DNA of 64,000 nt from a virus: the IMG/VR virus record IMGVR_UViG_3300017987_000063, positions 26,972 to 90,971 of that record; one strand, given 5' to 3'. The position numbers and the translations under genes are program-made. The notes under the pieces are model-generated. The model searched no databases and was not told the origin of the DNA. It saw nothing but the letters and a program-made list of their open reading frames with translations. Below are positions 19,231 through 60,200 of this stretch, in pieces (positions within the stretch are counted from its first letter, which is position 1; each line of letters starts with the position of its first letter).

Positions 19231-19258
19231 ATTATAGCATATATTTTTATAATGTCAA
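19231..19258 (-). promoter_or_regulatory. sigma70-type promoter, conserved-spacer family
   Basis: TTGACA-TTATAAAAATATATGC (16 bp)-TATAAT. Confidence 0.8.
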
Positions 19259-19336
19259 GTCTTTTCATAGCACTTTCGCCAGAAAAATGCAAGACCAGCG
19301 AAAAAATTTTTCGTGGGTCGGTTTTTGCGGTATCCG

Positions 19337-19373
19337 AAAAAAGTAATGCCCCTCTTGGACATTGAGGGGCATT
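19337..19373 (-). terminator. Intrinsic terminator
   Basis: AATGCCCCTC/GAGGGGCATT stem followed by a T-run on the minus strand. Confidence 0.7.
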
Positions 19374-19400
19374 TTAAGGAGGGGGTATAAAAACGAGCCG

Positions 19401-20658: not shown

Positions 20659-20898
20659 TTATTTTTTATTCCACGTTGAAGCAATTTCCTCAAGCTGTCC
20701 CTCAACGCTCTGGATTGTAGCCCATTTGCCTTTGGGGAACCACGCATCTGCATCGGGCAGGGCTTTCATAAGCTGAAGAATCCATGACATTCTTTCAGGC
20801 TGCTCCTCCACCGCAAAAGGCTCCCCGAATGCAAGCTCCAGCCCTTTTGCGGCCTTCTCCGATAATGTTACTGTGGTCTTCATACTGCATCCTCTCAA
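20659..20898 (-). CDS. Hypothetical protein
   Basis: Tiles in the minus-strand operon. Confidence 0.55.
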   Translation of the reverse strand: MRGCSMKTTVTLSEKAAKGLELAFGEPFAVEEQPERMSWILQLMKALPDADAWFPKGKWATIQSVEGQLEEIASTWNKK

Positions 20899-21098
20899 TA
20901 AGGCGGAACATCCGTCAAGTCCGCCCGCTTCTCCACGTTCGGCTTCCGGTAAGGCTTGTAAACGGCCTCGTTGTCAGATACAGGGAACCGCAGGTCATAA
21001 TACCGCCCCTCAATCGGGGCATCCTCGCACATCTCCACATCGTGGTCGGTAAAGCGGATAATTACCGCCTGGCGCCGGGCTTGGTCTCTTGTCCGCAT
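20895..21098 (-). CDS. Hypothetical protein; start may be slightly upstream, near 21116
   Basis: Preceded by the variant leader ACAGGACAGGAGC. Confidence 0.55.
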   Translation of the reverse strand: MRTRDQARRQAVIIRFTDHDVEMCEDAPIEGRYYDLRFPVSDNEAVYKPYRKPNVEKRADLTDVPPY

Positions 21099-21133
21099 AT
21101 TTCACATTTATTCATGTTTAGCTCCTGTCCTGT

Positions 21134-21176
21134 AAAAAAGTCAGGCGAGGGTGGGAGGACAGGCCACACCCCCGCC
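21134..21176 (-). terminator. Intrinsic terminator whose loop is antisense to the GGAGGACAGG start motif
   Basis: GGCGGGGGUG/CACCCUCGCC stem, loop UGGCCUGUCCUCC, then a U6 tract. Confidence 0.7.
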
Positions 21177-21181
21177 CTCAA

Positions 21182-21490
21182 TTATGCGGTCATATCAGCC
21201 GCGATTCTCGCAAGCTGTCCCGCATACTTCTTAATCTTTTTCCGTATAAGCTCGCCCTGCTTCGGGGTAACAAACCCCTTGTCCATATACCACTGGGCGA
21301 TGCTGGTAAGCACCGGCGCGTCGTGGCCGGTAAAGCCGACACCATTATTGTGGCGCGTGTCGCCCGCTGCCTGCTCGTCTGCGGTCTGCCGGTGGTACAA
21401 GGCCACCAGAGCATTTGCGAGCCTTTTGTGCGGGGCTGTGGCTATCCAGCCAGCCATTTTTGCCTTCTGTGCCTTCTGTTCTTTAGTCAT
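21182..21490 (-). CDS. Phage hypothetical protein
   Basis: Starts MTKEQK after GGAGGACAGGACA; contains LYHRQTADEQ...NGVGFTGHDA. Confidence 0.7.
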   Translation of the reverse strand: MTKEQKAQKAKMAGWIATAPHKRLANALVALYHRQTADEQAAGDTRHNNGVGFTGHDAPVLTSIAQWYMDKGFVTPKQGELIRKKIKKYAGQLARIAADMTA

Positions 21491-21650
21491 TGTCCTGTCC
21501 TCCATGCCCATCGTCAAGGGCTTGCGCGGCCTGTTCAAGCTCGCGCTTTGCGGTTTCAACGTAACTCCATTCGCCTTCGGTCAAGGCATCGTTTAAATGG
21601 TCTAATGCCTCGTTGACCTTGTTGGCTATAAAATCGTAATCGCGTTTCAT
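21483..21650 (-). CDS. 55 aa hypothetical protein (not in the ORF track)
   Basis: MKRDYDFIANKVNEAL..., with a GGGAG RBS, downstream of a promoter. Confidence 0.55.
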   Translation of the reverse strand: MKRDYDFIANKVNEALDHLNDALTEGEWSYVETAKRELEQAAQALDDGHGGQDND

Positions 21651-21727
21651 TATATGGTCTCCCGTGGTGCTTCGGGGAGTCCGAAGGTATCGCTGTTCAC
21701 CCCCGGCCTGATGTCCACATGATTATT

Positions 21728-21755
21728 ATTATAGCATATATATTTAAAACGTCAA
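21728..21755 (-). promoter_or_regulatory. sigma70-type promoter, conserved-spacer family
   Basis: TTGACG-TTTTAAATATATATGC (16 bp)-TATAAT. Confidence 0.78.
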
Positions 21756-26888: not shown

Positions 26889-26937
26889 TGTCCTGTCCTC
26901 CTTGTTTTATTGGGCTTTTCTCGCCATCTTATATATA

Positions 26938-26965
26938 ATAATAGCATATATTTTTAAATTGTCAA
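26938..26965 (-). promoter_or_regulatory. sigma70-type promoter, conserved-spacer family
   Basis: TTGACA-ATTTAAAAATATATGC (16 bp)-TATTAT. Confidence 0.75.
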
Positions 26966-27012: not shown

Positions 27013-27084
27013 TAGCGGGGGCAGGAGTTGAACCCACGATAGCCGGAATATGAATCCGGTGCCTTACCACTTGGCTACCCCGCT
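27013..27084 (-). tRNA. tRNA with anticodon CAU (Met or Ile2); CCA not encoded
   Basis: Full cloverleaf: AGCGGGG/CCCCGCU, D-arm GCC-AAGUGGUAA-GGC, CCGGA-UUCAUAU-UCCGG, and T-loop UUCAACU. Confidence 0.9.
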
Positions 27085-57204: not shown

Positions 57205-60200
57205 TTACTCTGAAGGGGGTGGTTCCGTTTTTGCTGTGGTTTCGATTTCCGCCTGTCGCTTCATCCGCGCAACGCCGACCGAGGGAATGACACCTGTCCA
57301 GATGCCGCGCCGCTTGGTCTCCGAGCCGGGGCCTTCCTGCCCATCCTTGCTCTTTTTAATGCCGGATACGTTTTCCACCGCCTCAAGGCGAGTGCCGATG
57401 CCTTTTACCAGTCCGACAAGCTCTTCGAGGCTTTTCTTGACCTCTCCATCTTGCTCATCGGCAGGCGGGGCATCCTCCTCATCATCCGTTTTTTTACCTT
57501 CATCGGTCTCAGGCGGGGTCTCCGGAGCTTCCTCTTCCTTTTTGGCCTCGTCCTTGCCCTTCGGCTCTTCGGCTTCCTCTTTTTTCAGGAGCGGGGCAAG
57601 TTGTTCGAGCACCAGCTTGGCGGCCTTTTCCGCGATTTTATCGCCGTCCACCGCAGGCTGGGAAGGCTCTTCTGGAGCTTCCTCTTCGATTTTCAGACCG
57701 ACTTTGGCGGCCAGTTTGACCACCGATTCCTTCAGCATGGAAATGTCCGCGCCTTCCTCCATCTGCTCCAGAACATCGGAAGCCGTCTGGAGTAGTGTGG
57801 CTCCGCGCTCAACCTTTTCCATTTTCGGATCGGGGGCTTTAAAGCCGAGTGCGTGGGCTATCTTGGCCATTATGCCGACCGTAGCCTTTTCCTCGGCGGT
57901 TTTTTCGGGTGTTTCCTCCTTATGCTCCTCAGTCTTGGCGGCAGGCTCTTCCGCCGGGGGAGTCTCAGGAGCAGGAGAGGCCTTCGGCTCTTCCGTAGCC
58001 GCATCCGCGCCCTTTAATTGCTCTTTTTCCAATTTGATTTCCTCCTTGAGATATTCGTCGAGCCATGCCATGTCCTCTCCCTGCTGTTTAAAGAATTCCT
58101 TAAACCATGCAAGGTATTCGGTGTCAAGCTCGCCAACTTTCAACTCTTTTGCGGCCTCTTTCCGCAGCGGGGGCGGAGTCATCTCAAACTGCTCGCGGGC
58201 ATGTCGCGCCAGATGGTTGTAAACCCCCTGCCGCTCGCCTGCGGGAAGCTGGGTTCCTCCCCGCGCTCCGTTAACTGCCGCAATAGCCGCAATCACGCCC
58301 CTTCGGAACGTCCTCATCTGGCCATTTTCCAGTTTGTGGTGCGGCAACTTATACGCAGCCCTTACACGCGGTGGGCCTGCTTCGCCCTCACGCGCCATCG
58401 CGGGGTCGAAATAAGCATGCGCCTCTCGGTACATGCCCCATGCCTGCGCAGAGTCCTCGCCACCATTCGCGTTAATAATGGCGGTGCCTTCCGCTGGAGT
58501 AAAGCTCCACGTTGTAGACTGGGACACTGGATAAGCCCTGTAACCAACCACGGTCTTGTCCAGATCGTCCAGCAAGTCGGGGTTAATGTCGCTTTTTTCG
58601 GCGGGGTTGTACTCGGCCAAGGCAGTATAAAGCAGGCGGTTGCCGATTTTACCGTACCCCCTGCCAACTACTACCCTTTTGACGCCTCCTCCCGCTACAA
58701 TCCCTTGTGCGGTAGTCATAGCAGTAAGCCGGTTCACCGGCCCCAACTGTTTTAGCCGAGACGTCCCATCCTTGCTCTCCAGAAGCAGGCCATAGGTCTG
58801 TTTTACGTCGCCAAGTTTGGCCTCTTCGGGATTTTTCTGGAAGGTCTCCACGCTACCATCGGGAAGGGATGCGAAGAGGAGTGCGCCGGGGTCTTTCCTT
58901 GTAACTTCATTCGGCATAATCAGTATCTCCTCGTTCAGTTTTGCGAGTTCGCCTTCAAGATCGAAGGTATGATAATGCGCCCCTGCCACAGACTCTTCCC
59001 GGTTGCCACGATTCCATCGTGGGTATGGCCACTCCGTAGTGCGCCGCTCACCCGGTTCAACCCTGTGAGAATGGTTCATATCCTCGCTGGTTTTTCCCCG
59101 TATCACATCTCCTTGATTATCTATTTCAAGGTGCAGTTCGTGGCTGTGATCCTCAGCCGAAGCGGTGCGGAACTTCAGCTTGCGGATACCCAGCACCACG
59201 AGATTCGGGTCTCCCGGATACCACACCTCATCAACAGCCTGCTTTTCAACGTCAAGTGCCTTTTCCACGGACATCCTGCGTTCCAACTCGGACACGGCCT
59301 TCGGCTGAAGTATCTGTAACTCCATAACCGATGGCACCGGCCAAATATTGGAATAGGCTGAACTGCCGGGGAGCGGGCGACCTTTGGCCACAAAGGGGAA
59401 GGGACCTCCGATAAGTTTCCCATTATCGTCAAACTCCCTGTCTCCTTTGCCCGCCATCTGCGAAGGTAGAGCAGTCACATAAACAGCAGCATATTTCCCT
59501 GTAGGGTCAAGCCCAACGTTGGGCAGGCTGGTATCCTCTGCGCCAATAAAAGTCCCGAACACAGGCAACTTACCATTTTGCCCCAACTTCTCGGTATTCG
59601 GGACACCGGCTTCCTTCATGTAGTCTCGTAACCGCTCAATCTCATCCGCGTCCGTAACCGCCGGAAGCTCTATTTTCTCGCCCGGCAGCTTGTCGGCCAA
59701 GCCTTCCACAGTGACGTTCATGAGATAAGCGTTATATCCTTTGCGCCGCATTTCCACAAAGGTCGGCAATTCCTTGAGAGTGCGCTGGCGGAGGGGGGCA
59801 GCATCCTCGTCATCCGTCTCCTCACGCGGGCCTCCGCCCATCATAATAAGGCCGGGAAGGAATTTTTCGACCTCTCCTTCCGGTAGCTCCAGTTCCTTCC
59901 ATACCTCGTCCGGTATGTCCAGCGATTTCATTATCGCCGACCTGAAGCCGCCGGTGCGGTCGTTCATTGCCCGGTGCGCACGGGTCGTGGTAACGTGTTC
60001 AAGGTCTAAATCGTCAAGGTAACGCTTGTCCCCGACCTTAAACAAAGCTCGCGGGTTACTGCGGTTCGGCTTGCCGCCGATGGAAAGCTGCTTGTCGCAT
60101 GTGCCCCCCGTTGTAAGCTCCCATAAATCCTGCGCCTGCGGGTACTTTTTATCCAGCATGAAGTCCAGTTCAAGCGCAACTGATTGCGGGCCATTATGCC

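Follow-up and report, generated by a model that had tools for sequence, protein, structure and literature searches.

The terminator hairpin H14 of RNAIII in S. aureus, like hairpins H7 and H13 of the same RNA, carries a C-rich loop that binds the Shine-Dalgarno (SD) sequence of several mRNAs and blocks initiation, and sRNAs with C-rich loops, such as RsaE, share this anti-SD mode (PMC3053349). In phages P1 and P7, loop sequences of the c4 antisense RNA are directed against the region around a ribosome-binding site (RBS) (Citron and Schuster, 1990, summarized in PMC12197685). The tac/fbi interaction of hok mRNA base-pairs the 3' end of the molecule with its 5' end, hides the SD sequence, and leaves the full-length RNA closed and untranslatable. 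Such 5'-3' long-distance interactions are also found in other type I toxin mRNAs (PMC9841398). Cluster K mycobacteriophages carry start-associated sequences (SAS), copies of an asymmetric 10-13-nt motif with an SD core placed a few nucleotides before the ATG (Pope et al., 2011, PMC3203893); the 11-19 copies lie only in the non-structural half of the genome and all point the same way except for one reversed copy away from gene starts (PMC3203893). A first-pass annotation of the locus described here had proposed that a phage terminator loop mirrors a private start motif and had named no described equivalent, but RNAIII H14, the c4 RNA of P1/P7, and the Cluster K SAS all precede it.

The locus belongs to a 90,971-bp IMG/VR record from an uncultured virus. 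The window analyzed is the 64,000-nt stretch corresponding to bases 26972-90971 of that record, and all positions below are window positions unless stated otherwise. Every gene is on the minus strand, which is G- and purine-rich. Sheath, tape measure, and baseplate genes mark this as a contractile-tailed phage, and it also encodes a family A DNA polymerase, a DnaB-type helicase/primase, and a methyltransferase. Reading 5' to 3' along the minus strand, the virion block (~64000-28000) comes first, small genes fill the next block (28000-17700), and after these come the replication genes. A 91,130-bp contig with this stretch is present in each of two independent public assemblies, and the ~4.9-kb offset between their coordinates points to a circular or circularly permuted genome of ~91 kb that is probably complete, though the record is rated 63% complete. 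The source metagenomes of contigs with this stretch were from sediment and seawater. In an Rfam covariance-model search, the only match was a tRNA gene at 27013-27084 (minus strand; 64.7 bits), just upstream of the first early promoter; a Mu-gpT-DE candidate at 21113-21146 was dropped at 20.7 bits, against a gathering cutoff of 49, with an E value of 0.95.

The small-gene block contains eight or nine near-identical 28-nt promoters, each with a consensus -35 element, a 16-nt A/T spacer, and a TG-extended consensus -10 element. On the minus strand, the -35 elements of this family start at 26965, 25583, 23821, 21755, 19258, and 11127, and two more copies lie upstream of the window. Downstream of several of these promoters come a short G+C leader hairpin and, after it, the start motif. 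This motif, GGAGGACAGG, is found in eight copies on the minus strand of the window, the number of gene starts given in the first-pass annotation, and in 11 copies in the full record, all of them 0-8 nt before an ATG. The two starts said to be pairable with its complement through a G-U were also found; both carry GGGGGACAGG, and one further start reads GCAGGACAGG-ATG. The consensus extends over 16 nt up to the ATG. All 11 exact copies and the three variants are in the early/replication block, and none is in the virion block.

26892-26901, minus strand: exact start motif at a gene start
26654, 25388, 23741, 23416, 18864, and 11073, minus strand: further exact copies, with three more upstream of the window
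21494-21503, minus strand: exact start motif of gene P0001 (partner B), pairing with the hairpin loop over 9-10 bp
25536 and 19211 (G-U variants) and 16728 (GCAGGACAGG-ATG), minus strand: variant motifs at gene starts

A single exact copy in the opposite orientation exists in the 90,971-bp record, as had been claimed for the stretch available at the time, and the genome-wide orientation count that had been suggested as a check gave 11 sense copies to one antisense copy. Markov models of order 0-4 predict only 0.013-0.029 antisense copies. The sense strand holds no other 8-mer of the antisense sequence, and a short-word BLAST search of the genome with the hairpin as query revealed no repeat family besides the motif itself. 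The antisense copy is contained in the loop of a hairpin that begins 4 nt past the TAA stop codon of gene P0001 and is followed by a U tract.

21143-21177, minus strand: hairpin, with 5' arm 21177-21167, loop 21166-21154 (UGGCCUGUCCUCC), and 3' arm 21153-21143
21154-21163, minus strand: antisense motif copy CCUGUCCUCC (RNA), unique in the record
21134-21139, minus strand: U6 tract, 3 nt (GAC) beyond the stem

A G+C-rich stem-loop just downstream of a stop codon is a feature of intrinsic terminators, and in isolation this hairpin has a predicted energy of -23.5 kcal/mol, ranking second in strength genome-wide among hairpin-plus-U-tract sites; a terminator consensus scan did not list it. The element had been described as a 10-bp GC stem plus U6. 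The GC-rich stem and the U6 tract stand, but the stem has 11 pairs, two of them G-U, and the U6 tract is set 3 nt off the stem, where an intrinsic terminator would have 0-2 nt; the gap fits a leaky terminator. The loop was also said to display the antisense decamer. The perfect complement does lie within the 13-nt loop, but the minimum-energy fold adds two pairs (GG/CC) that reduce the loop to 8 nt and leave only eight of the ten antisense bases free. These eight have an unpaired probability of ~1.0, the last two Cs are paired (unpaired probability 0.05), and freeing all ten costs 3.6 kcal/mol. The plus-strand copy at 21154-21163 was rejected as a genuine RBS: the first ATG comes 20 nt after the motif, in agreement with the earlier statement that no plus-strand start codon follows it (none within 20 nt). 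A search of sequencing runs for the stretch returned none from RNA, and the DNA contigs carrying it are near-identical and show no variant of the hairpin. The feature is real and non-random. Terminator-like hairpins are very scarce in the small-gene block. In the early block, two tandem hairpins with U tracts at 19334-19400 (minus strand), just upstream of the promoter at 19258, are the only others that are convincing as terminators, and they lack long-range complementarity to the transcript they belong to.

The hairpin lies at the end of a short transcription unit, which runs in the order promoter (21755-21728), 70-nt leader, P0003, P0001, hairpin.

21728-21755, minus strand: promoter, with -35 TTGACG, a 16-nt spacer, and a TG-extended TATAAT; a member of the 28-nt family
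21483-21650, minus strand: first gene, P0003, an ORF of 55 aa whose stop codon overlaps the P0001 start (ATGACTAA)
21182-21490, minus strand: P0001, 102 aa, the last gene before the hairpin; phrog_21015
21113-21131, minus strand: leader of the next ORF, with AGGACAGG at 21131-21124, an AGGAG SD sequence, and an ATG at 21115-21113

Judging from the consensus promoter, transcription would start near 21721 and yield a 589-nt RNA. P0003 is acidic and had no match in a family search. P0001 is a soluble phage protein for which there was no Pfam or PDB annotation, a PHROG entry of unknown function, and an Atlas label of "hypothetical". For the SD site of P0003 (GGGAG), a gene that lacks the shared start motif, the fold predicts pairing with a CUCCC located 12 nt upstream, giving a small leader hairpin at 21659-21679 (minus strand; transcript nt 44-64). 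In unrelated phages, a strong hairpin often comes next after a phrog_21015 gene, which suggests that the gene for this small protein tends to be placed last in a transcription unit.

On the minus strand from the hairpin down to ~19670, the promoter scan found no promoter scoring at least 9/12; the next five or six genes therefore need read-through. The first ORF after the hairpin (21062-21115, minus strand) has a good SD sequence and, beginning MNKCEIC, is only 17 codons long. In another reading frame, it is overlapped by an ORF of 67 codons at 20895-21098 (minus strand) that has no SD sequence. This arrangement may reflect a leader peptide, translational coupling, or a frameshift; sequencing error is unlikely because the region is identical in independent assemblies at ~40x.

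Searches for relatives returned little. There was no blastn match to phage records. In IMG/VR, the 16-nt start motif gave 79 single hits, attributable to chance; the 28-nt promoter was found in one unrelated 175-kb phage that had neither the motif nor a sheath match; the replication protein had no match; the sheath matched at 28% identity; and P0001 matched seven loci at 42%-49%. A metagenome scan with P0001 gave 40 loci, all at 54% identity or less and with unrelated loops, and a protein search returned its own cluster plus one match at 52%. The DNA polymerase reached at most 34% identity in a genome scan. Measured by the flanking protein P0001, the collections searched held no relative closer than 54%.

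When the 589-nt transcript was folded as a whole, the hairpin was predicted to open and its three contiguous parts to pair with three upstream sites: a segment in the leader, the start motif of P0001 (partner B, listed above), and a segment within the P0001 coding sequence.

21698-21711, minus strand: leader segment A, transcript nt 12-25, a near-copy of the 5' arm; pairs with the 3' arm plus UGA
21430-21442, minus strand: partner C, P0001 codons 17-21; pairs with the 5' arm plus UGUGGC

Helix A joins 21153-21141 to 21698-21711 (13 bp, one bulge), helix B joins loop bases 21162-21154 to 21495-21503 (9 bp), and helix C joins 21175-21163 to 21430-21442 (12 bp, interrupted by one G.G mismatch). 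Nested one inside the other, the three helices abut on the hairpin side with no unpaired base between them; they total 34 bp and exclude the hairpin. Their predicted probabilities were 0.91-1.0 across all tested 5' and 3' ends and in read-through RNAs.

Opening the hairpin in favor of the three helices gains 20.7 kcal/mol, which is equally the cost of forcing the hairpin to form. When the same 52-nt tail was placed on 126 other 537-nt sense windows, the gain averaged 1.1 kcal/mol (SD 2.0, maximum 12.8), and in 13 other start-motif contexts at the same distance it was 0-6.7, so the motif alone is insufficient to produce the value of the native transcript. Conversely, 110 altered hairpins (permuted pairs, shuffled loop) on the real upstream RNA gave a mean of 1.6 and a maximum of 12.0, and six other hairpins of this phage together with ten that follow P0001 homologues elsewhere gave 0-3.9. 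The native gain exceeds each of the ~265 controls (range 0-12.8). Knocking out any one partner in silico reduced it to 8.6-11.5 kcal/mol, and knocking out the leader and coding partners together reduced it to 0.1. Taken singly, the duplex with partner C (-27.7 kcal/mol) was better than in all 591 genomic windows compared, and that with partner A (-23.5) was equaled in 0.7% of the 591; for the loop segment, 23% of windows offer pairing as good as that in its own transcript. Among synonymous recodings of partner C, 0.46% were as good as the native codons. Given the gain above all controls and these partner and codon statistics, the complementarity between hairpin and mRNA is specific to this hairpin with this transcript and not a product of chance.

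Stepwise folding of the naked RNA formed helix C at nt 552-560, helix B at 568-572, and helix A at 576-584; at equilibrium, each part was captured as it emerged and the terminator was never the best fold. The first-pass annotation had listed, as an alternative to its regulon, cis pairing of the loop with the motif copy at 21494 on the same RNA. This has become the best-supported of its proposals; both arms also have partners in that transcript, which a trans-acting RNA would not predict. The nested three-helix fold would make the match between loop and start motif one helix of a self-regulating mRNA.

We tentatively propose, with a probability of roughly 45%, that the hairpin is a cis-acting RNA switch that combines a conditional intrinsic terminator with an RBS lock on the two-gene mRNA. 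Ribosomes on both ORFs would cover partners B and C; the adjacent arms would then form the hairpin, transcription would stop at U6, and the loop would be exposed. If P0001 were untranslated, partner C would take the 5' arm before the 3' arm had been made and, with the 5' arm pre-empted, RNA polymerase would read on into the next five or six genes. The closed fold would mask the P0001 RBS and clamp the 5' and 3' ends of the mRNA together. The basis of this proposal is thermodynamic prediction on one genome, and we infer its ribosome-coverage step, in which translation would lead to termination. With both ORFs held unpaired, the equilibrium fold did not restore the terminator (0.03) and still favored the helix between leader and 3' arm (0.92), so that the link from translation to termination would have to rest on kinetics. 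The partners also lie 255-535 nt upstream, a distance over which the local hairpin should win kinetically unless they are free and close, and the collections and contigs searched yielded neither a close relative for covariation nor a natural variant of the hairpin.

An alternative explanation is that the element is an ordinary intrinsic terminator, or a 3' stabilizing hairpin, that ends a moron-like cassette, with the motif and the upstream matches being functionless. Its position 4 nt past a stop codon is typical of such an element, it has a G+C stem and a U tract, and a hairpin also tends to follow P0001-family genes in unrelated phages. A scan that spans very many windows will also bring rare coincidences to the surface, and C-rich segments find partners easily on a G-rich sense strand, as the 23% of windows for the loop segment illustrate. 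What this explanation would have to accept as coincidence are three improbable matches, nested and contiguous, on one 44-nt element: an antisense 10-mer expected only 0.01-0.03 times, a partner C better than all 591 windows, and a partner A at the 0.7% level, with a combined gain above all ~265 controls. We regard it as rather unlikely.

We consider it unlikely, too, that the loop acts in trans, the reading put forward in the first-pass annotation. Either the terminated mRNA or a fragment cleaved from its 3' end would form a kissing interaction between its loop and the start motifs of ~13 early and replication genes, block ribosome binding, and act as a timer. The antisense copy is unique and unexpected by chance, the isolated hairpin leaves eight of its ten bases unpaired, and all of the targets are in the hairpin's own early/replication block. 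Rough, accessibility-corrected net energies of the loop against the 13 starts were -15 to -17 kcal/mol (compared with -8.8 for the adjacent leader), and most target sites open cheaply (0.9-2.6 kcal/mol), which makes trans pairing feasible, although a 10-bp helix inside a 13-nt loop would be strained. The match of both arms to their own transcript is left unexplained by such an RNA, and no other motif context offers the flanking partners. In the untranslated full-length RNA, moreover, cis pairing is predicted to occupy the whole loop, which would cost 15.4 kcal/mol to open. Trans action could coexist with the cis switch.

RNAIII H14 and c4 RNA are precedents for trans action, and a third is the reversed SAS copy of Cluster K1, which we found to be placed in a predicted apical loop. 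In Mycobacterium phage Anaya, the reversed SAS lies between gp96 and gp97, and on the transcribed strand it is predicted to lie in the 10-nt apical loop of a two-tier hairpin. The anti-SAS loop is invariant in eight K1-type phages (Anaya and seven others; region identity 77%-100%), and the stems stay paired. The Anaya hairpin region is shared by 150 Cluster K phage records. Other subclusters that retain the SAS have lost or altered the loop: in Amohnition, Amgine, and Shandong1, the SAS is unchanged but the loop differs. The anti-SAS loop is missing from Pixie, Keshu, Marshawn, and Yuna. Covariation between loop and target was tested across Cluster K and was absent, and stem covariation there was not significant, which counts against a trans-acting function. 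The hairpin is part of a conserved intergenic region of ~180 nt (Anaya 59779-59959 and homologues) that contains several stems. Some Cluster K records annotate a hypothetical gene over this region, but its indels are not multiples of three, which argues for a non-coding RNA. The Cluster K hairpin is an architectural precedent and not proof of function. A general scheme could be drawn from it, in which phages with a private start motif on their early genes would carry one antisense copy in a hairpin loop, the resulting RNA would time or shut off the whole set of genes through RNA-RNA pairing, the cis fold would mask the silencer until the mRNA is translated or processed, and Cluster K1 would be an independent example; we hold this scheme to be doubtful.

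It is quite improbable that the relevant structure is a local pseudoknot, in which the loop of the intact hairpin would pair with AGGACAGG 21 nt downstream over 8 bp, connected by U6, and would mask part of the next ORF's SD sequence on read-through RNAs. Pairing in cis with this adjacent leader had been raised in the first-pass annotation, and the perfect 8-nt complement, which overlaps AGGAG, was indeed found. By estimates from general pseudoknot geometry, connecting loops of 3 nt and 11 nt would be long enough on paper. The pairing is weaker than that with the canonical motif, however (a duplex of -12.9 to -14.8 kcal/mol and, with no pseudoknot penalty yet applied, about -8.8 net), and the complement to AGGACAGG follows automatically because the adjacent leader is a variant of the start motif.

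Phage T4 has RegA and RegB, which act on early mRNAs as translational repressor or nuclease. That the start motif is likewise the site of a phage protein acting on early mRNAs, with the reversed copy irrelevant or a DNA-level decoy, is very improbable. In its favor, the motif (GGAGG followed by ACAGGACA) is longer than expected for pairing with the 16S rRNA tail, it is confined to early genes, and the SAS authors left protein and RNA partners both open (PMC3203893), but no candidate RNA-binding protein was identified and such a site would explain neither the hairpin context nor the arm complementarities.

We return to the cis switch as the preferred reading. If it is correct, the locus would hold an unusually long-range three-helix terminator/antiterminator and RBS lock, and the translation of one early gene would be linked to read-through into the next gene block. 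We know of no partner reported for phage start-associated motifs since 2011, and an RNA that mirrors such a motif is a concrete candidate. The current value of the element lies in this hypothesis and in the pointer it gives to the anti-SAS hairpin of the culturable Cluster K phages.

Compared with the systems described above, the phage hairpin resembles RNAIII H14 and RsaE in having an accessible C-rich loop complementary to several RBSs (eight of ten bases free, 13 predicted targets). Unlike the phage hairpin, which ends an mRNA and whose predicted targets share a private motif of 10-16 nt, RNAIII is a bacterial RNA dedicated to regulation, and its targets are proven. Like c4, it is a phage RNA from the same operon as a target, with a loop complementary to a sequence near the RBS; by contrast, c4 is a separate small RNA, produced by processing, that lies upstream of a single target, and the phage element has no match to the Rfam c4 model. 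The likeness to hok is in the fold-back of the 3' end on the 5' region, with the SD sequence sequestered, that is predicted for helices A and B (probability 0.91-1.0). In contrast to hok, the phage unit encodes no small hydrophobic toxin (P0003 is acidic and P0001 soluble) and has no antisense gene (the promoter scan found no strong plus-strand promoter nearby), and its 3' element is also a candidate terminator hairpin that pairs with the RBS directly.

In trp-leader-type attenuators, a terminator forms or fails to form according to which of the mutually exclusive pairings prevails, and the position of the ribosome settles that choice. Exclusive pairings and ribosome position are shared by the proposed switch, but its "leader" would be a whole 102-codon gene, its three competing segments lie at distances of 255-535 nt, and it lacks a run of regulatory codons. 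The Cluster K SAS and the motif of this phage are both asymmetric, SD-containing sequences placed before the ATG of non-structural genes only, in one orientation, with one reversed copy. The motif sequences, the host phyla, and the phages themselves are unrelated, with no nucleotide match of this phage to any phage record, and the Cluster K hairpin differs in having no U tract and in its location, a long intergenic stretch close to the right end of the genome. Set beside these systems, the element is a variant of known principles of RNA control.
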